Shown in pieces: positions 137-10,185 of a stretch of DNA of 53,212 bases. How positions within the stretch are numbered: position 1 is the stretch's first letter; the number at the start of each line of letters is the position of its first letter. The DNA lies in assembly GCA_025350765.1 (NCBI GenBank), contig JANXXC010000221.1, forward strand, positions 1 to 53,212, given 5' to 3'. The notes beneath the pieces were generated by a model that searched no databases, was not told the DNA's origin, and worked only from the letters and a program-made list of their open reading frames with translations. A program made the position numbers and the translations under genes. Source of the DNA: Holophagaceae bacterium. GTDB lineage: Bacteria > Acidobacteriota > Holophagae > Holophagales > Holophagaceae.

Positions 137-556
137 GTGGAGAAACAGGTCCGATCCCAACCTTTGTACTGGGTGGAGGGTGAACCAGGCGGCCAGATCG
201 GCCGCCTCCGGAAAGGGCCAGCGCTCCTGCAGGGCCGGGTCGGGGATTTAATCGATGGCGAGATGGTTGAGGGGGCCTACATTCCTCCGAAGATGACCGG
301 CACAACCTTTCTCCAGCCAGAATTCCCGGCCGAGGCCGGGAACCAGAGGCTGACGGCCGACGCGAGGGTACATGTCTCGGTGGATGCCCATGGCCGCGTC
401 ATCCGGCTGCGGCTGGTTCCGGGCTACGCTCTGGGCCTCTTCGGCCCCGAGGCCTTGAAGTGGGTGACCCGTTGGGATTTCAAGCCCGCTACCCAGGACG
501 GGAAACCCACCAGCGGCGGGACCGTGGTGCGCGTTCGTTATTTTCGGAAGCCCTGA
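137..556 (+). CDS. TonB C-terminal-domain-like protein (139 aa, GTG start)
   Basis: ORF track. The C-terminal ~80 aa (ARVHVSVDAHGRVIRLRLV...EALKWVTRWDFKPA...GGTVVRVRYF) resembles the TonB_C pattern. No N-terminal anchor or Pro-rich linker is seen, so the call is tentative. Confidence 0.4.
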   Translation: MEKQVRSQPLYWVEGEPGGQIGRLRKGPALLQGRVGDLIDGEMVEGAYIPPKMTGTTFLQPEFPAEAGNQRLTADARVHVSVDAHGRVIRLRLVPGYALGLFGPEALKWVTRWDFKPATQDGKPTSGGTVVRVRYFRKP

Positions 557-630: not shown

Positions 631-1422
631 ATGGTGCTTCCTTCCTATCTTCGCTCCCTCCAGACTTGGCCCATGAAAACTGAAACGAATCCGGCCATGG
701 ATTTACTTCCTGCAGGGGTGGCGCAAAGCCTCCAGGAATTTCTAACCCAAGCTCAGCAGACCCTGGGCGCTTCCCTGCAGTCCATCTCGCTCTTCGGGAG
801 CGGAGCCGAGGGACGCCTCCGGGCCACTTCCGACCTCAACTTGCTGCTGGTACTCCGGGATCTCAACCCCTCGGCTCTGGAGAAGCTGCGGGAGCCCATG
901 CGACTGATGGAAACCCTACATCGAGCCCGCTTCTTGCTCCTGCTCACCGACGAAATGCCTGCAGCCCTTGAGGCCTTTCCCGACAAGTTCGCGGATATTT
1001 TCAGGCGGCATCAACGGCTTATCGGTTCGGACCCCTTCGAGGGGCTGAGCGTCGATCCCCGCCACCTCCGGCAGAAAATCTCCCAATCCTTTTTAAACCA
1101 GACCCTGAGGCTCAGGGAGGCCTATGTTTTGCGAAGCCTTCGAGAGGAACAGGCCGAACGGGCCCTCGCGGAGGCGACGGGTCCCCTGAGAAGCGAAGCC
1201 GCCAATCTCCTGGAGCTCGAGGGGCAAAATCTCGCTCCGAAAGAAGCCTTGGCCAAGATCGCCGCGGAACTTCCCGGGGGTCCCTGGGAAGACCTTTTGG
1301 ATGCCCTCTCCCAGGTCCGGGAAGGAGAAACGCTTCCGCCAGGCACCCCGCCAGCCTTCCTTCTTCGATTGGCTGATCTGGCCCAGCAACTTTACCGGCG
1401 CTCCCTGGAGGTCCGGTCTTGA
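631..1422 (+). CDS. Nucleotidyltransferase-fold (MNT/KNTase-like) domain protein
   Basis: 263-aa ORF with an N-terminal LFGSGAEGRLRATSDLNLLLVL motif (G-S-x10-D-h-N-h, NTase-like). Its stop overlaps the next start (TTGA at 1419-1422). Confidence 0.6.
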   Translation: MVLPSYLRSLQTWPMKTETNPAMDLLPAGVAQSLQEFLTQAQQTLGASLQSISLFGSGAEGRLRATSDLNLLLVLRDLNPSALEKLREPMRLMETLHRARFLLLLTDEMPAALEAFPDKFADIFRRHQRLIGSDPFEGLSVDPRHLRQKISQSFLNQTLRLREAYVLRSLREEQAERALAEATGPLRSEAANLLELEGQNLAPKEALAKIAAELPGGPWEDLLDALSQVREGETLPPGTPPAFLLRLADLAQQLYRRSLEVRS

Positions 1423-2324
1423 ATCCGCTTGATCTTCGAGGTCCCGAATTCCTGGTTTTCTACATCCTGATCGTTAGCACTGGATCCGGAATTCTCTGGA
1501 TGCTCCGCCGCGCGCAGGAGGGCGGTTCTGTTCCGCGCCTGGATGTCTCCGACCCCTTCCTTCTGGCTTTTCTGCGGGGAGGAAAGGCGGAAATGCTCCG
1601 GGTGGGGCTGTTCTCACTGGTCGATCGAGGCCTCTTTATGCTCGTCGGCGGTGGGGCCCAATTGGTGATTGCCGAACCCATGGCCGCTGAAAAAGTTCGG
1701 CGTCCCCTGGAAAAGGAATTGCTGCGCAAATTCAACGAGGCCCATGCTCCCCAATCTGTCCTGACGGTTTCTAGTCCCATCCTGGATGGGGACGAATACC
1801 AACAAACCCTAGAAAGCCTCCAGCTCCTTCCGGATGAATCCCAGAAGGCTCGACGGGTTTGGCTCTTCATCATCGGGGCCCTTGGCCTGGGCGGCTTGGC
1901 TGCGGTGAAGGTGTTTGTCGCCCTATCCCGGGGAAGATCGAATGTGGGTTTTCTCATCATTCTGGGTGCCCTCTCGCTGGTGCTGGTGGGCGCGGTGCTT
2001 TTCCCGCGCAGGACCTCTCTCGGCTCCAGGGCCTTGGAGGATCTCCAAAGGCTCACCCAACCCATGAAGGGCCGTGCGGCCAGCCTACAGCCTGGTGGGG
2101 GCACCGCCGAAGCTGTGCTGCTCGCGGCAATCTTCGGGTTTTACACCCTTCCAAGCGCCTTCTCCTACCTCACCCTTCTTTTCCCTCCCCGCCGTTCATC
2201 CTCCTTTGGGTCTAATAGCGGAACCTCCTGTGGATCTGCTAGCGGAACCTCGTGTGGGTCTGCGGGCGGGTCATCCTGCGGCGGCGGCGGATGCGGCGGT
2301 GGGTGTGGAGGCTGCGGGTCATGA
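1419..2324 (+). CDS. TIGR04222-type multi-pass membrane protein with C-terminal Ser/Gly/Cys-rich tail
   Basis: N-terminus MNPLDLRGPEFLVFYILIV...DPFLLAFLRGGKAEMLRVGLFSLVDRG matches my recollection of the TIGR04222 domain. There are about 4 hydrophobic segments. The tail is ...SGTSCGSASGTSCGSAGGSSCGGGGCGGGCGGCGS. TTG start overlaps the upstream stop. Confidence 0.75.
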   Translation: MNPLDLRGPEFLVFYILIVSTGSGILWMLRRAQEGGSVPRLDVSDPFLLAFLRGGKAEMLRVGLFSLVDRGLFMLVGGGAQLVIAEPMAAEKVRRPLEKELLRKFNEAHAPQSVLTVSSPILDGDEYQQTLESLQLLPDESQKARRVWLFIIGALGLGGLAAVKVFVALSRGRSNVGFLIILGALSLVLVGAVLFPRRTSLGSRALEDLQRLTQPMKGRAASLQPGGGTAEAVLLAAIFGFYTLPSAFSYLTLLFPPRRSSSFGSNSGTSCGSASGTSCGSAGGSSCGGGGCGGGCGGCGS

Positions 2325-3172
2325 ACGATCGATTCGGGATTGGCTGGCGGCCAGAACTCAGCGCTGGCCTGCTGGCCCATGGCGAGCAGATGGATCTCAC
2401 CGAGCTCATTTTGGAGGACGCCGCGGCGGCTTCTCCACGCCACCACCGCGCCTACCGGACCCTTGCCTCCCAGGTGCCATTCTGGTTGCATGGCACTAGC
2501 CTGGGCATGGCCTCCACCTTTCCCTCGGACGAGAAAAGGCTGGCCCGCTGTGCGCGGATGGTGGAAGTCATTGGCCCCGAAGGGTGGAGCGAACACTTGG
2601 CCTTTGTTCGGGTTCCGGGCATTGAAATCGGCCACCTAGCGGCTCCTCCCCGCACCCTGGAGACCGCGGAGGGAGCTGCGCAAAATCTACGACGGGCCGC
2701 GCGGATTGTGGGCAGTCTGCCCCTCGTCGAGAACGTCGCCTCCCTGATGAGGCCCCCAGGAAGCACTCTTCCGGAAGCCGAATGGATCCGTTTGATCCTG
2801 GAAGCCAGCGGCGCGGAACTGTTATTAGATCTCCATAATCTGTACGCCAATGCCATGAACGAAGGGGAGGATCCGACCCAGCGACTATTGGCTTTCCCTC
2901 TGGACCGAGTGGGCCAGGTGCACGTGGCGGGGGGACGGTGGATCGGGGCGCCCGGAGCGTTGAAGCGGCTGGACGATCACCTCCATCCCACCCCCCCGGA
3001 GGTCTACGGCCTCTTGGAGACCCTTGCGAAAGTCCACCCAGGCCCGCTCAACGTGGTCCTGGAGCGGGATGGAGCTTATCCCGCCATTCCGGATCTCCTG
3101 GCCGAATTGGAGCTTGCACGGGAGGCAGTAGTCCGGGGAAGACAGCGCCGAGTTCTGGAGGCCGCGTCATGA
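2321..3172 (+). CDS. DUF692 / MNIO family (MbnB/TglH/HvfB-like multinuclear non-heme iron) protein
   Basis: Starts MNDRFGIGWRPEL. Family-typical motifs are present (WLHGTSLG, WSEHLAF, PLVENV, LLLDLHNLYANAMN, VGQVHVAGG, LDDHLHP). The ATG at 2321 overlaps the upstream TGA (ATGA). The track ORF 2252..3172 is an upstream extension in the same frame. Confidence 0.85.
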   Translation: MNDRFGIGWRPELSAGLLAHGEQMDLTELILEDAAAASPRHHRAYRTLASQVPFWLHGTSLGMASTFPSDEKRLARCARMVEVIGPEGWSEHLAFVRVPGIEIGHLAAPPRTLETAEGAAQNLRRAARIVGSLPLVENVASLMRPPGSTLPEAEWIRLILEASGAELLLDLHNLYANAMNEGEDPTQRLLAFPLDRVGQVHVAGGRWIGAPGALKRLDDHLHPTPPEVYGLLETLAKVHPGPLNVVLERDGAYPAIPDLLAELELAREAVVRGRQRRVLEAAS

Positions 3173-3411
3173 GCCAGGCACTGGAGCGTCTCCTGGCGAT
3201 GATCTATACGGATTCCGCGGCCCTGGAACGCTTCCTGGCAGATCCTATCACCGAGGCTTTGGGCGCCGGGTGCACGAAGGAAGAAGCCGCGCGCCTTGAA
3301 GCCCCTGATGCATCAGGTTTACGGTTGGCTCACCAAAGTTTCCACCGGAAAAGGACGTTGAAGCACGCTCTCTCGTCAAAAGTCTGGTGGCGATGGTTGA
3401 TGGGCCGTTGA
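3169..3411 (+). CDS. Small (80 aa) helical protein, function unknown, coupled to the DUF692 gene
   Basis: The ATG at 3169 overlaps the DUF692 stop (ATGA). It is in frame with track ORF 2938..3411. The sequence MSQALERLLAMIYTDSAALERFLADPITEALGAGCTKEEAARLE has a LigA-subunit/NHLP-leader-like helical flavour, which is only a weak impression. Confidence 0.5.
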   Translation: MSQALERLLAMIYTDSAALERFLADPITEALGAGCTKEEAARLEAPDASGLRLAHQSFHRKRTLKHALSSKVWWRWLMGR

Positions 3412-3600: not shown

Positions 3601-4572
3601 TCAGAAGACCTCCTTAATACCTCGTACGGGAGCCGCGGCCTCCCTGTGAAAGGTCCTCGCCCAATCCTTGGGCAGAAAGAACACCTGGGCCTTGCGGTTC
3701 CGCAAGAAAACCAGTGAATCCCAGATAAGGCCTTGGTCGACACGGAGTGGATCAAGAGGCCCTTCATCCAGGGCCACGGTTTTGGGCTTGAGAAGGCCGC
3801 GATAGATGAAATTCCAACGGCCTTGGAGGTGCACCAGGTATCCATCCTTCAAGCGCGGGGCGCCCTTCACTTGGCGGGCAAAAGCGCGCACCACGTGGTC
3901 GCTGCCCAAGGGATCCAATTCGAGGATGGCCAGCTCCGCCCATTGGGGCACTTCATGGCGCCCGGCTCGCCGCACCCAGGACATGATGCGCCCGGCGAAG
4001 CCCACCAGCAGGAAATGCAGCACCCGGAAGAGCAGCGGCAGCATGAGCGCGATGAGCAGAATGAGCGCCACCAGCACTGGGATGGCAATGGTGGGATGGC
4101 TGTACGCCAGGGCCAGTAGGCCCACCACGCCCACGTCTTCGGCCACGCTGATGAGGCCGTGAGTGGTGGGCTCCGGCGCCGTGTGGGCCATGAGGCGAAT
4201 GCCCATCTTGGTGCCGTGGGTGCCCAGGGCGATGGTGCCGCCGGCGAGCATGGCGATGACCTGTACCGTGGGGTGCAGATCCCCGGCGGCCGCGAGTGCC
4301 AACAATGCGCCGCCGACGGGCCGCACGAAGGTGTGGATGCCATCCCAAATCACCGTGACAAAGGGCACCTTGTCCGCGAAGAATTCGATGAGGAAGAGCA
4401 GGCCTGCGGCGATGAGCACCGCCGGATGGGACAGCACATGGAGTTCAGAAGGAAGGCCGCTGATCCAATGAAAGCGTTCCGCCAGGCCCACCGTCAGCAC
4501 CGCGAGGTAGAGGTTGATGCCCGAGACCACGGAGAGCCCGAGGATCCCAGCGAGGGTGGAAAGAGGAGCCAC
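3601..4572 (-). CDS. DUF4126-like membrane protein with extra ~130-aa C-terminal soluble domain
   Basis: 323-aa ORF with a GTG start. The N-terminal half is polytopic (LGLSVVSGINLYLAVLTVGL..., FADKVPFVTVIWDGIHTFVRPVGGALLA), typical of DUF4126. The C-terminal half is non-hydrophobic. Confidence 0.65.
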   Translation of the reverse strand: MAPLSTLAGILGLSVVSGINLYLAVLTVGLAERFHWISGLPSELHVLSHPAVLIAAGLLFLIEFFADKVPFVTVIWDGIHTFVRPVGGALLALAAAGDLHPTVQVIAMLAGGTIALGTHGTKMGIRLMAHTAPEPTTHGLISVAEDVGVVGLLALAYSHPTIAIPVLVALILLIALMLPLLFRVLHFLLVGFAGRIMSWVRRAGRHEVPQWAELAILELDPLGSDHVVRAFARQVKGAPRLKDGYLVHLQGRWNFIYRGLLKPKTVALDEGPLDPLRVDQGLIWDSLVFLRNRKAQVFFLPKDWARTFHREAAAPVRGIKEVF

Positions 4573-4586
4573 GGTGCCTCAGCCTT

Positions 4587-4850
4587 TCAGTGGCGGAAAT
4601 AGCGCAGCGCCAGCAGCAGGAGGACGGCACCCGCGATGCTGATGAGGGCGCTGAAGACGCGGCCGCTGGGCTTGTCCCCGGATTCCAGGCCCACGGCGCT
4701 CGCCAGGAAATGCCCTCCGAAGGAACCCACCACGCCCACAAGCCCGGTCATCCAAAAACCGATGGGGTCGTGGCCCGGTAGGACGAAACGCGCCACCAGT
4801 CCGACGATGAGGCCGAGGATGAACTTCCAGATGAGGTGGAACATGGGCAT
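4587..4850 (-). CDS. GlsB/YeaQ/YmgE family stress-response membrane protein
   Basis: 87 aa with family-typical sequence (ILGLIVGLVARFVLPG...GFWMTGLVGVVGSFGG). Confidence 0.85.
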   Translation of the reverse strand: MPMFHLIWKFILGLIVGLVARFVLPGHDPIGFWMTGLVGVVGSFGGHFLASAVGLESGDKPSGRVFSALISIAGAVLLLLALRYFRH

Positions 4851-5765: not shown

Positions 5766-6254
5766 ATGGCCCTTGGGAAATCGGAAATCGATGCCTACCT
5801 TATGCGCTACGGATCTGGCCCCGCCCTGCTGCGTATGGCCTGGTCGGAAGTCCCCCCGGAAGCCCGCCAGTGGCAGCCTGGAACGGGAAAATGGTCTGCC
5901 CATGAAATTGTCGTCCACTGCGCCGATTCCGAAACCTACGGCGCCACGCGCATCCGCCTAGTGCTCGCCGAAAAGGAGCCCCTCATCGTGGGCTACGACG
6001 AGAACCTGTGGGCCCGCACTTTCGACTACCACGGCCACGATGTAGAGCTGGCCTTCCGCACCATCGAGTCGGTGCGGGCCAATACCGTGACCATGCTGCG
6101 CCGCCTGCCGGACGGCGCCTGGGGTCGAGAAGGCCGCCACACTGACAGTGGACCCTACACGGACAACGACTGGTTGCGCATCTACGCAGAGCATCTCGAA
6201 GTCCACGCGCGGCAGATCCGGCGGAACATCGCAGCCTGGAAGAACAAAAGTTGA
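5766..6254 (+). CDS. DinB-family (DinB_2-like) protein
   Basis: Contains HEIVVHCADSETYGATRIRL...YAEHLEVHARQIRRN. The ATG at 5766 is preceded by AGGAGG. The track ORF starts at a GTG at 5709. Confidence 0.75.
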   Translation: MALGKSEIDAYLMRYGSGPALLRMAWSEVPPEARQWQPGTGKWSAHEIVVHCADSETYGATRIRLVLAEKEPLIVGYDENLWARTFDYHGHDVELAFRTIESVRANTVTMLRRLPDGAWGREGRHTDSGPYTDNDWLRIYAEHLEVHARQIRRNIAAWKNKS

Positions 6255-7063
6255 CCTCCGAGCTGAACCTCGACGCCTATTTATCGCGCATCGGCTACAC
6301 CGGGGCGCGTGCCCCAAGCCTTGAGTGCCTGCGCGCATTACATCTGGCCCATGGCTCCACCATTCCCTTCGAGAATCTGGATATCCAGATGGGTTTGCCC
6401 ATCAAGCTGGATTTGGCGTCGCTGCACGAGAAGCTGGTAAGGCGCCGCCGCGGGGGATATTGCTTCGAGCAGAACACGCTGTTCATGGCTGCGTTGCGGG
6501 CTTTCGAATTTGAGCCCAAACCCTGCGAAGCCCGCGTGCGCTATGGCATGCCTGCCGTGTTGCCCCGCACCCACATGCTGCTTTTGGTGGATGTCGACGG
6601 CGTCGAATACCTTTGCGACGTGGGCTTCGGCGGCGAAGGTTTGCTGCATCCCCTGCCCACGGATGGTGAAGCGCATGAACAGTTCTCAAATACCTACCGC
6701 GTCGTGGCGGAGGGCGCGCTGCGAGTGCTGCAAAGCCTTCACGCGGATGGCTGGTTTGATCTCTACGCTTTCATTCCCGAAGAACGCAATGCCGTCGATT
6801 TCGAAATGGGGAATTGGTACACCAGCGCCTATCCGCAGTCCCGATTCGTCCTGACCCTCACGGCTCAGTTGCCGACACCCGAGGCACGCTATACCTTGCG
6901 AAACCGCACTTACACGGTGATCCGCAACAGAGTCGAAACCACGCGAGAACTGGATGACGCGGAATTATGGAAAGTATTGCGAGACGTCTTCACGTTAGAT
7001 GTGCCTGATGGGACCTCATTTCGGGCGATTAACCCTTCTTCATTCGATGCGCCCAATTCTTGA
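6251..7063 (+). CDS. Arylamine N-acetyltransferase
   Basis: Contains LDAYLSRIGYTG...LHLAHGSTIPFENLD...RRRGGYCFEQN (NAT catalytic Cys context). The TTG start overlaps the DinB stop (TTGA). Confidence 0.85.
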   Translation: MTSELNLDAYLSRIGYTGARAPSLECLRALHLAHGSTIPFENLDIQMGLPIKLDLASLHEKLVRRRRGGYCFEQNTLFMAALRAFEFEPKPCEARVRYGMPAVLPRTHMLLLVDVDGVEYLCDVGFGGEGLLHPLPTDGEAHEQFSNTYRVVAEGALRVLQSLHADGWFDLYAFIPEERNAVDFEMGNWYTSAYPQSRFVLTLTAQLPTPEARYTLRNRTYTVIRNRVETTRELDDAELWKVLRDVFTLDVPDGTSFRAINPSSFDAPNS

Positions 7064-7706
7064 GAATGTAGGCCTCAGCATCGGGGGTTTTGCAGTCGGT
7101 CTCGCCATGATCTACGACGACCTTTCCAATGCGCTTGGCGGCGGCGAGTGCCGCTAGTTTCAGGTGTTCATTTCGGGTGCCGAGGGCGATCAGGGTGTTG
7201 TTCATGGCGCCGCGAGTGCGATTCGGCGCGGCGTGGACTTCCTTTTCGATGCGTTTGATGAAAGACCCGAAAAAAGCTTCGTCCCTAGTCTTGTCGTCCA
7301 TGGCGGCGCGGGCCAGCAGCCCCCACCCGGCGCTGCTGATCCACTCATCCTTCGATTCCATCCAGGCCTTCATACAGGGCTCGGCGTGGGGTGTGTGCGC
7401 CACGAAAGTGGTGAAGGCATCCACGATGGGATAGCCCGTGCAACCGTTTAGCCAGGCATCAATTTCTTTGCGGGTGGCCTTGGATGGATCGGCGATTTGC
7501 GAAGCCAAAATCCGTGCTTCGTGAATGCCGGATTCCCATAAGTCCAAGGCCAGGACATGGTCGATTTTGATCCGTTTCTGAAGCTTTGCGAGATCGCTGT
7601 AGAGCACGCCCAGGACTTCACCTTCGGCGCCGTGGCGGCGGTAGATCCGAGCGGTGCCTTCCTTGCCCGAAGCCTTCAATAATTGGAGGATTTCAGATGC
7701 GTTCAT
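7029..7706 (-). CDS. DNA alkylation repair (AlkD-like HEAT-repeat) protein
   Basis: 225 aa. The N-terminus ILQLLKASGKEGTARIYRRHGAEGEVLGVLYSDLAKLQKRIK is typical of the DNA alkylation repair enzyme family. Its 3' end overlaps the convergent NAT gene by 35 nt. Confidence 0.75.
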   Translation of the reverse strand: MNASEILQLLKASGKEGTARIYRRHGAEGEVLGVLYSDLAKLQKRIKIDHVLALDLWESGIHEARILASQIADPSKATRKEIDAWLNGCTGYPIVDAFTTFVAHTPHAEPCMKAWMESKDEWISSAGWGLLARAAMDDKTRDEAFFGSFIKRIEKEVHAAPNRTRGAMNNTLIALGTRNEHLKLAALAAAKRIGKVVVDHGETDCKTPDAEAYILKNWAHRMKKG

Positions 7707-7713
7707 GGTTCAC

Positions 7714-10185
7714 CTAGGGAGTGCCCGCGGCGGCTGGCCGGGGCGGGGCATTCTTCACGTAGCGATCAAACCAGGCGAGCATTTCAAAGAGCACATGCTC
7801 CGTGGATTCCCTGGCAGCGTAGCCGTGGTTCTCAAAGGGCAGCATGACTAGGCGTACGGTCTTGCCGATGCCCCGCATGGCTTCATAGAGTTTTTCGGAT
7901 TGCATGGGCACCGTGCCGGGATTGGAATCCAGCTCGCCGTGGATCAGCAGCAGCGGATCCTTGAATCGATTCGCTTGAAGCACCGGCGAAAGCTTCACGT
8001 AATTGTCCTGGGCCTCCCACAGGGAGCGTTTCTCGTTCTGGAATCCGAAGGGGCGCAGGGTGTGGTTGTAGGCGCCGCTGCGGGCAATGCCGGCGCGGAA
8101 CAGATTCGAGTAGGCCAGGAGGTCCGCGGTCATCAGCGCGCCGTGGCTGTGGCCCCCCACGCCCACGCGGTCGGGGTCCGTCACGCCCAGTTCCACCGCT
8201 TTATCAATGGCGGCCTTGGCGTTGGCGGTGATCTGCTCAATAAAGGTGTCGTAGACCGTTTCCGGGGGCCCCACCACGGGCATGGCGGTATGCGCCAGCA
8301 CCGCATAGCCCTGGAGCAGAAAGAAAAGTTCGGAGGTGCCTTCCAGAGTTGTGAATTGCCTGGAGGAGCCCTCCACTTGGCCGGCGACAGCCTTCTCCGC
8401 GTAGTCCATGGGGTAGGCCCAAAGCACCGTGGGCAGCCGCGTTCCGGCCTTGTAGCCCGGCGGCAGATAGAGCGTGAAAGAGAGCGGCACGCCGTCGGGC
8501 CTTGTGTAGCTCACCAAGCGCTTGGTGATGCCCCGGATCTGCGGCGTGGGGTCAGGGAAATGGGTGACCGCTTGAAGCGTGGATTGCCCCAAGGCTTCCC
8601 CTTCCGAGGCGGCCTTCAACAGGCTTGGTGAAAGGGTTCTCATGAAGAGGTTGGGGGGATCGGTGGGAGATTCCTTTTGGGTGAGAAAGGTCCCAGCCTT
8701 GGGATCCAGCCAGGTGGAAAATGATTCGAAATGGGCCTTCCCAGACCTGAACAGTCTCGTGGTTTGAAGGCTCCGAAGGTCTAATTGATCGAGGAAGGGG
8801 CGGTCGCCATCGGGCGAGGAACCATTGCCTTCCAGGTAGATGGAATCGCCCTGTTGCTGAATGGCCCAAGCTCCGTTGAGCAGCTGGCGGTAGACGGGGT
8901 AGCCGGGATTTTTGTACTTCTCATCCGAGCTCCTGTTCCATAACAGCCTTGGCGAAATGGCGCGGTCATCGGCGGCGATGATGAAGGTGCGGGTCCAGTG
9001 GCGGTCCCGGTCGTAATCTGAGACCAGCGCCAGCCCACCTTTTTCAATCCATTGCAGCCCTGAGAAGCGCTGTTGGGTTTTGAAAATCTCGATGGCGCTT
9101 CCACCCACGCGCTTCAACATGAGGCGATCCCGATGGGCTGCCTTGATCTTGGGGTCACCGCCATCCAAGGCTTCGGTCCATGCAAGCGTCGCGGGCTCCG
9201 TGGGTCGCCAGCCGTGGTCCCGAGGCCCGACCACCACGCCATCAATGGGGACCTGCTCCGCGAGGGGCTGGCTGGTGAGGGACTCCACCAGCTCGCCGCG
9301 GGTGTCCCACACTTCCACCTCTTTGGGGAAACGGCTCCAGGTGCGCTGGTAGGAGTAGGGGCGGTGGACGCGCTCCACCAGCAGACGATGGCCCCCTGGC
9401 GCCGGAGACACACGACCGAAAACCGCGGGTTTGCCGAGCAGAGCGATCTTTCCCGAGGCCACGTCCACCGTGGCCAGTTGAGAAGTGGCGTAGTGGTCGA
9501 AGAGATCCGCGTCATGGGGGTTCTTCAAAACGTCCCGGACTTCGTAGGTACTGCTGGCGATGGTGGCGCCCATATTCTCCTGGATCTTGGGACCGGGGGG
9601 AACGCTGGGGGCCTCGGGGGCTGAGCCTCGGTCGGCGGGAATGATCTTCACCAACAGCGTTTTTTGGTCCGGCATCCATTGCAGTGAATAACCCAGCAGC
9701 GGATTTACTCTCAGGCCCGGCAGCGGTCGGGCCTTGCCCGTGGCCGCGTCGGCCACCCACAGATCGAGGCCCTCTTGAGTTTCATAGGTGAACGCGAACA
9801 TCGTCCCGGTAGCGTTCCACCTTGGGTAGCCGAGCCGCGCATTCGCGGGCAGAACCACAGGGGTCTCGGCGCCGTCCTTGATGCTTTTCAAGGTCAGGCC
9901 CACGTAGTAGGAGCGGTAGCTGCTCTCGGCGTTGGTGCGGGGATTGATGCGCACACCCCCAAGGCGCAGCATGGGCTCCGCCAGATCGGAAATGGATGGA
10001 TAGCGAATCCCTTGCGCGAAGAGGATGACGTCATGGGTGGGACTTACGAAGGGCCAAGGTGGAAGCTGGGCGTTCAGCACGTCCAGCACTTCATTTGGAG
10101 GCTTTTGATAGCCCTGCTGGGCTGGGGCCATAAAGGGCCAGAGAGCACCCGCGACGGCGCAAAACAATCGAAGGAAACGCATCAT
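7714..10185 (-). CDS. S9 family serine peptidase (prolyl oligopeptidase/dipeptidyl aminopeptidase-like), secreted
   Basis: Signal-peptide-like start MMRFLRLFCAVAGALWPFMAPAQQ. The C-terminal alpha/beta hydrolase domain carries GGHSHGA (GxSxG), HGELDSN and ENHGY. Confidence 0.8.
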   Translation of the reverse strand: MMRFLRLFCAVAGALWPFMAPAQQGYQKPPNEVLDVLNAQLPPWPFVSPTHDVILFAQGIRYPSISDLAEPMLRLGGVRINPRTNAESSYRSYYVGLTLKSIKDGAETPVVLPANARLGYPRWNATGTMFAFTYETQEGLDLWVADAATGKARPLPGLRVNPLLGYSLQWMPDQKTLLVKIIPADRGSAPEAPSVPPGPKIQENMGATIASSTYEVRDVLKNPHDADLFDHYATSQLATVDVASGKIALLGKPAVFGRVSPAPGGHRLLVERVHRPYSYQRTWSRFPKEVEVWDTRGELVESLTSQPLAEQVPIDGVVVGPRDHGWRPTEPATLAWTEALDGGDPKIKAAHRDRLMLKRVGGSAIEIFKTQQRFSGLQWIEKGGLALVSDYDRDRHWTRTFIIAADDRAISPRLLWNRSSDEKYKNPGYPVYRQLLNGAWAIQQQGDSIYLEGNGSSPDGDRPFLDQLDLRSLQTTRLFRSGKAHFESFSTWLDPKAGTFLTQKESPTDPPNLFMRTLSPSLLKAASEGEALGQSTLQAVTHFPDPTPQIRGITKRLVSYTRPDGVPLSFTLYLPPGYKAGTRLPTVLWAYPMDYAEKAVAGQVEGSSRQFTTLEGTSELFFLLQGYAVLAHTAMPVVGPPETVYDTFIEQITANAKAAIDKAVELGVTDPDRVGVGGHSHGALMTADLLAYSNLFRAGIARSGAYNHTLRPFGFQNEKRSLWEAQDNYVKLSPVLQANRFKDPLLLIHGELDSNPGTVPMQSEKLYEAMRGIGKTVRLVMLPFENHGYAARESTEHVLFEMLAWFDRYVKNAPPRPAAAGTP

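Follow-up and report, generated by a model that had tools for sequence, protein, structure and literature searches.

A four-gene operon at positions 631-3411 of contig JANXXC010000221.1, a stretch of 53,212 nucleotides from a Holophagaceae bacterium that we refer to in its entirety as the window, probably serves to modify the cysteine-rich tail of its own membrane protein. To judge from the sequence, a multinuclear non-heme iron oxidase (MNIO) of the DUF692 family and an 80-residue protein, encoded by the third and fourth open reading frames (ORFs), would together convert tail cysteines into 5-thiooxazoles, and the resulting metal-binding product would remain tethered to the membrane. The second ORF encodes the membrane protein, of family TIGR04222, and the first encodes a protein with a nucleotidyltransferase (NTase) fold. 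The features of this locus are as follows.

631-1422, forward strand: ORF1, NTase-fold protein, 263 aa (249 aa if the ATG at 673 is the start)
1419-2324, forward strand: ORF2, TIGR04222 membrane protein, 301 aa, TTG start
2321-3172, forward strand: ORF3, MNIO, 283 aa counted from the ATG
3169-3411, forward strand: ORF4, small protein, 80 aa
2196..2321, forward strand: ORF2 tail, residues 260-301, six Cys in S-C-G or G-C-G contexts; proposed MNIO substrate
2200..2269, forward strand: 24-nt tandem repeat, 2.2-2.7 copies, Tandem Repeats Finder scores 78-93
1405..1409, forward strand: GGAGG Shine-Dalgarno sequence for ORF2, within ORF1, read in the sequence
2306-2310, forward strand: GGAGG Shine-Dalgarno sequence for ORF3, within the preceding ORF, read in the sequence
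3156-3160, forward strand: GGAGG Shine-Dalgarno sequence for ORF4, within the preceding ORF, read in the sequence

An earlier note on this DNA had described four same-strand ORFs joined by overlapping stop and start codons and had taken them for one coupled unit. Every coordinate and motif that it gave was verified in the sequence, and the coupled unit is borne out as well. The junctions read TTGA (1419-1422), ATGA (2321-2324) and ATGA (3169-3172), and a GGAGG is located 8-10 nt 5′ of each of the three internal starts, inside the preceding ORF. Overlapping stop and start codons combined with internal Shine-Dalgarno sites are a classic arrangement for translational coupling. Because order and spacing are also kept in 80 related loci (see below), the four ORFs evidently constitute one translationally coupled operon.

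Two of the starts call for comment. Homologues of ORF1 align only from about residue 17-26 on, so its true start may be the ATG at 673, which yields the 249-aa form. Gene callers differ on both proteins, with ORF1 homologues called at 249-250 aa and ORF2 homologues at 274 aa, beginning at M28, on some contigs (L083, L084). However, the TTG at 1419 is favored as the ORF2 start because 52 homologues share the conserved motif (M/V)NPFDLRGPEFL at the N-terminus.

The arrangement is common among relatives. Scanning metagenomes with aligned MNIO homologues yielded 80 independent loci whose MNIO is 51-61% identical to ORF3, and six-frame ORFs of these loci were searched with the four window proteins; the census is confined to the clade around the window MNIO and to the TIGR04222 genes that accompany it. 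The earlier note had suggested counting how often these genes occur side by side. A Cys-tailed TIGR04222 gene is directly upstream of the MNIO gene in 76/76 observable loci (for the four others, fewer than 300 bp are available on that side), and an ORF4 homologue follows the MNIO gene in 78/78 (for the two others, fewer than 60 bp are available beyond it). One ORF encodes both the MNIO and the ORF4 homologue in three loci. Where at least 700 bp of upstream DNA is present, an ORF1 homologue precedes the TIGR04222 gene in 39 of 42 loci, the exceptions being the three-gene variants L022, L056 and L058. Cassette genes share one strand, with intergenic gaps mostly between -14 and +13 nt. The flanking genes differ from locus to locus, which argues that the 2.8-kb cassette is self-contained.

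Look-ups from nine ORF1 homologues led to ten distinct loci, nine of which have the NTase-TIGR04222-MNIO layout, as does the locus reached from a fused MNIO (P0011). In the tenth, L086, a radical S-adenosylmethionine (SAM) gene replaces the MNIO gene. The cassette is widespread in soil metagenomes, and a scan of species-representative genomes returned one distant locus (L001, 29% identity). The relatives that carry names belong to Thermoanaerobaculia, Candidatus Binatia and Dongia.

Two variants of the layout deserve separate mention. The loci lacking an NTase gene fall in a subclade, to which L053 also belongs, that has only the TIGR04222, MNIO and small-protein genes, the latter two being fused in L058; here the TIGR04222 protein begins with MWPLDMRGPEF (L022, L053) or MWPFDLRGPDF (L056). 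An apparent fusion of NTase and TIGR04222 genes in L003 (a 547-aa ORF) was rejected. Compared with the near-identical L021 (L003:4020-4160 versus L021:1262-1400), it has a one-base insertion 35 nt before the NTase stop, and the merged frame probably reflects a mistake in assembly or a lone frameshift and not genes that are fused in nature.

ORF2 scores 83.9 bits against TIGR04222 (cut-off 43) over profile positions 1-228 of 229, in agreement with its original description as a multi-pass TIGR04222 protein with a six-Cys tail. It has both hallmarks of the MNIO-associated TIGR04222 subset, namely a C-proximal, Cys-rich Ser/Gly region and a stop codon overlapping the MNIO start. The protein ends ...SGTSCGSASGTSCGSAGGSSCGGGGCGGGCGGCGS, and its six tail cysteines (C271, C279, C287, C292, C296 and C299) all lie in the last 31 residues. 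Each of the 76 neighboring TIGR04222 proteins likewise has a Ser/Gly/Cys region with three to eight Cys (mode six) in its last 45 residues. A 39-sequence alignment (A5) shows C296 to be invariant and both C287 and C299 to be nearly so, with a terminal pattern of C-G-G-G-(x)-C-G-G-C-G in which the final CGGCG is near-invariant. The universal presence of these cysteines and the conserved terminal pattern argue that the tail is under selection and is not drifting low-complexity sequence, which lends computational support to the initial proposal that it is the likely substrate. The 24-nt repeat at 2200-2269 encodes the repeated tail unit SGTSCGSA, and gain or loss of repeats could be the source of the spread in Cys number among homologues.

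Kyte-Doolittle analysis of ORF2 reveals three strong hydrophobic segments at about residues 11-29, 147-169 and 176-195 (values of 2-3) and a weak fourth at about 232-255. Family mean counts of Lys plus Arg are 0.41 at the N-terminus, 2.79 after the first segment, 2.56 before the second, 1.72 in the loop between the second and third, 3.23 after the third, and 6.64 over the whole loop leading to the fourth. Under the positive-inside rule, this bias suggests that the region following the third segment is cytoplasmic. A published analysis places the TIGR04222 tail in the periplasm (PMC12452194). Thirty-five of the 39 family members also match Pfam DUF2207_C weakly over the second and third segments (residues ~144-213; best E 6e-6), a hint that TIGR04222 and DUF2207 membrane proteins may be distantly related. 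Apart from microcin B17 (E-value 3.4), a profile search of the PDB with the TIGR04222 family gave nothing but Gly/Ser linkers, matched through their low complexity.

The predicted enzyme appears complete. ORF3 matches the Pfam model PF05114 (MbnB_TglH_ChrH) with 191.2 bits (cut-off 25) over profile positions 2-261 of 263, and it contains every motif that had led to its description as an intact DUF692 protein (WSEHLAF, ENV, DLHNLY, HVAGG and DDHLHP). These motifs can be aligned to both the DUF692 structure 3bww and TglH (8hci). Among 41 homologues, eight positions are invariant (H57, H92, E137, D170, H201, D218, H220 and E248) and a ninth, N173, is nearly so. From established knowledge of MbnB and TglH, we take these positions to be candidate iron ligands, and their conservation answers the initial concern that the metal ligands might prove to be missing once the protein was properly aligned. 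The nearest curated models in NCBIfam are BufB (150.5 bits), HvfB (119.2), ApyH (87) and ChrH (31), all of which score below their equivalog cut-offs. ORF3 is evidently an intact member of the MNIO superfamily that is related to thiooxazole-forming enzymes and stands outside the named families.

A clue to the chemistry comes from L086 (NCBI GCA_942493075.1, OW818681.1, positions 6001-8762). An ORF1 homologue of 44% identity comes first, followed by a TIGR04222 protein (85 bits) and then by a radical SAM/SPASM protein; the locus contains no MNIO gene and no ORF4-like ORF. The TIGR04222 tail of this locus reads ...CGGGGGCGGGGCGGCGS, and the C-terminal stretch of the same protein reads ...SSCGSGSSCGGGGGCGGGGCGGCGS. 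Its radical SAM protein scores 485.3 bits against TIGR04082, the SbtM model (cut-off 350). SbtM converts the Cys of a Gly-Cys motif into a thio(seleno)oxazole, with a mass change of -4 Da and absorbance at 304 nm (PMC9204691). Since SbtM and BufB/HvfB install the same group, a 5-thiooxazole is the most economical prediction for the tail. Genes for MauE/DoxX, rhodanese, DsbD and several thioredoxin-fold proteins are also found near the L086 cassette.

The MNIO could nevertheless modify the tail and yield something other than a thiooxazole, such as the oxazolone-thioamide of MbnB, the product of a TglH-type loss of the β-carbon, crosslinks or another oxidation, with a role that is perhaps redox or structural. 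ORF3 is not an equivalog of any characterised MNIO, the chemistry of these enzymes is diverse, assignments of thiooxazole versus oxazolone-thioamide have already been revised once, and the lack of conserved metal-homeostasis genes nearby is compatible with a non-metal role. However, the nearest models, BufB and HvfB, represent enzymes that form thiooxazoles, and no MbnB or TglH model matches ORF3 at E ≤ 0.1. Moreover, the replacement enzyme in L086 resembles a maturase of Gly-Cys thiooxazoles, and the (S/G)-C-G contexts of the tail resemble the K-C-G motifs of oxazolin and bulbicupramide. On balance, we regard a different product as unlikely.

The role of ORF4 is best understood from its family. 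An exhaustive profile search identified 496 representative clusters, mostly of 65-125 aa. An alignment of 71 members shows that L9, K61 and R62 are invariant and that C35, the sole Cys of ORF4, is usually Leu. Nothing is conserved after K61-R62, where length and sequence vary and where some members and several fusions have almost no residues. Within this set, Pfam LigA matches 53/71 members (E ≤ 1, best 1e-5), Frankia_peptide 36/71 and Nif11 9/71. The family profile retrieves SonA (a split-borosin precursor with a LigA domain) and nitrile hydratase alpha from the PDB at E-values of 3e-4 to 6e-4. The AlphaFold2 (AF2) model of ORF4 is all-helical, with a mean predicted local distance difference test (pLDDT) score of 90.5. 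Its best Foldseek match is Os1348 (TM-score 0.60), followed by SonA and a proteusin precursor (TM-scores 0.5-0.6, E > 1); such weak E-values are expected for an 80-residue helical domain. ECOD classifies the N-terminal 59 residues of the MNIO partner TglI as LigA-like (PMC12353581). Our best reading, from family profiles and predicted structure, is that ORF4 belongs to the LigA-like/NHLP clan, the group that also includes the TglI N-terminus.

The earlier note had found no recognisable MbnC- or DUF2063-type partner and had suggested the 80-aa protein or the NTase as a substitute. Profile searches of the four proteins indeed reveal no such partner, and DUF2063 has no match in the four window proteins or, at E ≤ 1, in the 71 ORF4-family members. 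An identity of ORF4 with DUF2063, MbnC or TglI was also rejected by Pfam, PDB sequence-profile and Foldseek searches, and neither of the latter two retrieved the TglH-TglI structure 8hi7. Partners of PME-type 1 combine DUF2063 with a recognition element (RRE) for RiPPs (peptides made by the ribosome and modified after translation) in about 250-260 aa, and ORF4 comprises 80 all-helical residues. Natural fusions nevertheless support the 80-aa protein in the partner role. Fourteen of the 120 best MNIO homologues carry an ORF4-type domain at their C-terminus (E 1e-18 to 1e-32), in addition to the three fused loci of the census. An engineered HvfB-HvfC fusion is more active than the co-expressed proteins, and HvfC is needed for the mixed-valent, active Fe(II)/Fe(III) diiron state (bioRxiv 10.64898/2026.07.17.739211). 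The natural fusions share the C-to-N order of that construct, which points to ORF4 as a partner. We therefore propose, with strong support from the fusions, that ORF4 is a minimal MNIO partner in which the helical module has been kept without an RRE. It may correspond to a short PME-type 2 partner or to the ‘adjamnio-V’ group, both named in a survey of MNIO clusters (PMC12452194).

Many ORF4 homologues end in basic and aromatic residues (for example, WWRRL) after the invariant KR, a region corresponding to about residues 58-80 of ORF4 (window 3340-3411), and the motif is absent or altered in MNIO-fused forms. This end could be a membrane-interface anchor that holds the MNIO near its membrane-bound substrate.

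The same family resemblances raise the question of whether ORF4 is itself a RiPP precursor, with a LigA/NHLP-like leader and its basic C-terminal 15-20 residues as the core, in which case the TIGR04222 protein would be an exporter, an immunity factor or an unrelated metal binder. The domains it matches (Frankia_peptide, Nif11, SonA and the proteusin NHLP precursor) are typical RiPP leaders, enzyme-fused precursors exist, such as the borosin OphMA with its LigA-like domain (PMC12353581), and MNIOs can modify residues other than Cys (PMC12452194, Table 1). However, the supposed core is the very region that is not conserved and that some members and fusions nearly lack, which together with the enzyme fusions sets ORF4 apart from NHLP/Nif11-type precursors. 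There is no Gly-Gly-type cleavage motif, and a Cys-containing precursor was rejected because C35 is not conserved. The TIGR04222 tail, by contrast, is strictly conserved and recurs with an SbtM-type enzyme in L086, where no ORF4-like gene is present. We consider a precursor role for ORF4 very unlikely.

ORF1 is the least familiar component. Its sequence matches are weak and below cut-off (Polbeta, ANT(9) and MntA), and PADLOC gives only weak MNT-like PDC-S09 matches. The AF2 model (pLDDT 95.1) has the two-domain ANT-type fold, an NTase domain followed by a C-terminal helical domain. Foldseek places it closest to AAD(9), AadA and ANT(3'')(9) (TM-scores 0.53-0.59, E 1e-7 to 1e-5, ~265-275 columns), with kanamycin NTase and the Hailong HalB NTase ranking below these. 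The ORF1 profile aligns with the AadA N-terminus, where the GS...SDIDLLV of AadA corresponds to GS...SDVNLLL in the ORF1 family. Residues G42, S43, D54, N56, E94, K105 and R112 are invariant in alignment A6, which follows the 249-aa numbering; adding 14 gives positions in the 263-aa ORF, such that D54-x-N56 becomes D68-x-N70. The ORF1 family thus departs from the canonical D-x-D, in that the second metal-binding Asp is an invariant Asn. These polar invariants suggest a real ligand-binding site, and the protein may either transfer a nucleotide or only bind one. It is unlikely to be the stand-in MNIO partner that had been considered: L086 retains the NTase and TIGR04222 genes in the absence of both MNIO and ORF4, which argues that ORF4 belongs with the MNIO and the NTase with the TIGR04222 protein.

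An NTase gene beside a membrane-protein gene could also indicate a conflict system, such as Hailong (HalB/HalA) or an MNT toxin-antitoxin pair, with the MNIO acting on a substrate elsewhere, or the tail cysteines might simply be unmodified ligands for a metal or an Fe-S cluster. The ORF1 model resembles HalB (TM-scores 0.42-0.49) and MNT antitoxins, the PDC-S09 matches point the same way, and a third of the genomes that carry a TIGR04222 gene lack one for an MNIO (PMC12452194). However, ANT/AadA structures fit ORF1 better than HalB does, the second catalytic Asp is replaced by an invariant Asn throughout the family, and ORF2-4 have no PADLOC matches. The MNIO and its partner are linked to a Cys-tailed TIGR04222 protein in every observable locus, and the gene junctions of the window operon are translationally coupled. 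We give explanations of this kind hardly any credence.

Returning to modification of the ORF2 tail, the proposed sequence of events would be as follows. ORF3 and ORF4 would form the active enzyme, with ORF4 binding and activating the MNIO without contributing a peptide-recognition (RRE) domain. Using O2 and its iron cluster, the enzyme would form 5-thiooxazoles from the six tail cysteines, be it from all of them or only from some. As with bufferins and oxazolin, the expected product would show a mass shift of about -4 Da for each Cys and would absorb near 302-305 nm. ORF3 has no apparent hydrophobic segment at its N-terminus, which argues for modification on the cytoplasmic side; the tail might afterwards be kept inside or moved across the membrane. 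The product would stay on its membrane anchor as a thiol-rich site for Cu(I) or another soft metal. In the least certain step, the NTase-like protein would be an accessory of the substrate and not of the oxidase, perhaps as an adaptor that binds a nucleotide and serves the cytoplasmic part of ORF2, or as an enzyme that adds a second modification.

Several findings weigh against this account of the operon. The ORF3 scores for BufB (NF050167) and HvfB (NF003818) compare with cut-offs of 310 and 360, respectively; ORF3 is a member of neither family, and its chemistry could therefore differ from thiooxazole formation. The SbtM argument stands on a single locus, in which the enzyme aligns only with positions 195-516 of 516 and lacks about 194 N-terminal model positions. 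No copper- or other metal-related gene is conserved beside the cassette. ORF4 alone has no Pfam match and scores 15.6 bits on the Os1348 (NHLP-clan) model, whose cut-off is 40; because direct searches missed TglI, DUF2063 and MbnC, only the LigA superfamily connects it, indirectly, with known partners. The topology of ORF2 is ambiguous, since a fourth segment that crosses the membrane would put the tail in the periplasm and one that does not would leave it in the cytoplasm, and this segment passes a Kyte-Doolittle threshold of 1.6 in only 20 of 39 family sequences. Finally, the three loci without an NTase gene indicate that this protein is dispensable for the core reaction.

A broader scheme, which we put forward tentatively as a possibility that is some way from probable, would treat the TIGR04222 tail as an anchored thiooxazole metallophore that can be matured either by an O2-dependent MNIO with a LigA-like partner or by an O2-independent SbtM-type enzyme. 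The D-x-N NTase would be common to both routes and might act as an adaptor for a leaderless substrate or as the enzyme for a second modification, for example nucleotidylation of tail Ser residues. MNIOs would then have a new partner logic, with a leaderless substrate and recognition supplied in trans.

The pairing of substrate and enzyme has been predicted before. A full-text literature search on TIGR04222 leads to essentially one study, that of Antoine et al. 2025 (Microb Genom, PMC12452194), who proposed on in silico grounds only that Cys-tailed TIGR04222 proteins are MNIO substrates. According to that survey, TIGR04222 proteins make up ~40% of the signal-peptide-less, Cys-containing proteins encoded just upstream of MNIO genes, the linked MNIOs are close to the bufferin and oxazolin enzymes, and their clusters contain no DUF2063 genes. 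Partners of ‘PME-type 2’ are found in at least 10% of TIGR04222-MNIO clusters, and many clusters seemingly have no partner. The survey does not mention a nucleotidyltransferase, a link to LigA/NHLP or a radical SAM alternative in this context. The statement in the earlier note that the pairing has not been characterised experimentally therefore stands, whereas the idea of tail modification did not originate with this locus and had already been proposed. The substrate-enzyme pairing is not new; the LigA-like small protein and the NTase are new components relative to the 2025 survey.

The window locus shares with the surveyed clusters a signal-peptide-less, Cys-tailed membrane protein upstream of a bufferin/oxazolin-related MNIO and the absence of DUF2063, but its clade is distinguished by a LigA-like protein in 78/78 and an NTase in 39/42 observable loci. 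The bufferin (BufA/BufB/BufC) and oxazolin (HvfA/HvfB/HvfC) systems likewise combine an MNIO with an obligatory partner to make copper-binding 5-thiooxazoles, an outcome that is proposed here, and in oxazolin the modified Cys residues lie in K-C-G motifs. In these systems, too, the gene for the partner comes after that for the MNIO, and the two proteins are functional when fused C-to-N. However, their substrates are small secreted peptides with Sec signals rather than the tail of an integral membrane protein, and their partner is a DUF2063 protein with an RRE (~260 aa) in place of an 80-aa LigA-like domain without one. The window also has an additional NTase-fold gene and no DoxX gene.

More distant systems share individual parts. 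TglH-TglI, which functions in 3-thiaglutamate biosynthesis (PDB 8hi7), pairs an MNIO with a partner whose N-terminal 59 residues are LigA-like, but TglI adds a peptide-binding domain, and TglH excises the Cys β-carbon from a peptide carrier. SbtM makes a thiooxazole from Gly-Cys, and an enzyme of its type takes the place of both MNIO and ORF4 in L086; in contrast, it is an oxygen-independent radical SAM enzyme with a fold unrelated to ORF3 and is absent from the window. AadA, ANT(9) and ANT(3'')(9) share with ORF1 the architecture of an NTase plus a helical domain and an alignable GS...SD region, but identity is only 11-17%, NCBIfam scores are far below cut-offs, and the genetic context of ORF1 is a protein-modification cassette rather than antibiotic resistance.

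In the window, the operon is preceded by a gene for a protein with a TonB C-terminal domain (137-556, forward strand) and is followed by a convergent gene for a DUF4126 membrane protein (3601-4572, reverse strand) and by one for a transglycosylase-associated small membrane protein (4587-4850, reverse strand). None of these genes is kept beside the cassette in other loci. An Rfam scan of the window gave no match, and a promoter and terminator scan performed no better than it did on shuffled sequence. In one lineage (L088:7973-10750, L095:6783-8759 and L096:5350-7234), the cassette adjoins an HTH_3/PBP_like regulator and a molybdate/sulfate-type ABC transporter (SBP_bac_11, BPD_transp_1 and ABC_tran+TOBE); these three loci are syntenic and were counted as one observation.

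To our knowledge, the MNIO substrates that have been characterised are without exception peptides or small secreted proteins whose leader or signal peptide is recognised by an RRE-bearing partner. The locus described here is unlike every characterised MNIO system in its proposed membrane-protein-tail substrate, its proposed LigA-like partner devoid of an RRE and its co-travelling AadA-like D-x-N protein. If the proposal is correct, the MNIO would act on the end of an integral membrane protein and have no more than an 80-aa helical domain as its partner. Such a system could show which function of an MNIO partner is essential, activation of the iron cluster or recruitment of the substrate, and a small, self-contained cassette that is common in soil metagenomes should be tractable for heterologous expression. 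The exchange of MNIO for an SbtM-type enzyme beside the same substrate family offers indirect genomic evidence for the chemistry and suggests that aerobic and anaerobic routes to it exist. What results would be a thiooxazole array tethered to the membrane, a type of metal site that, as far as we know, has not yet been described.

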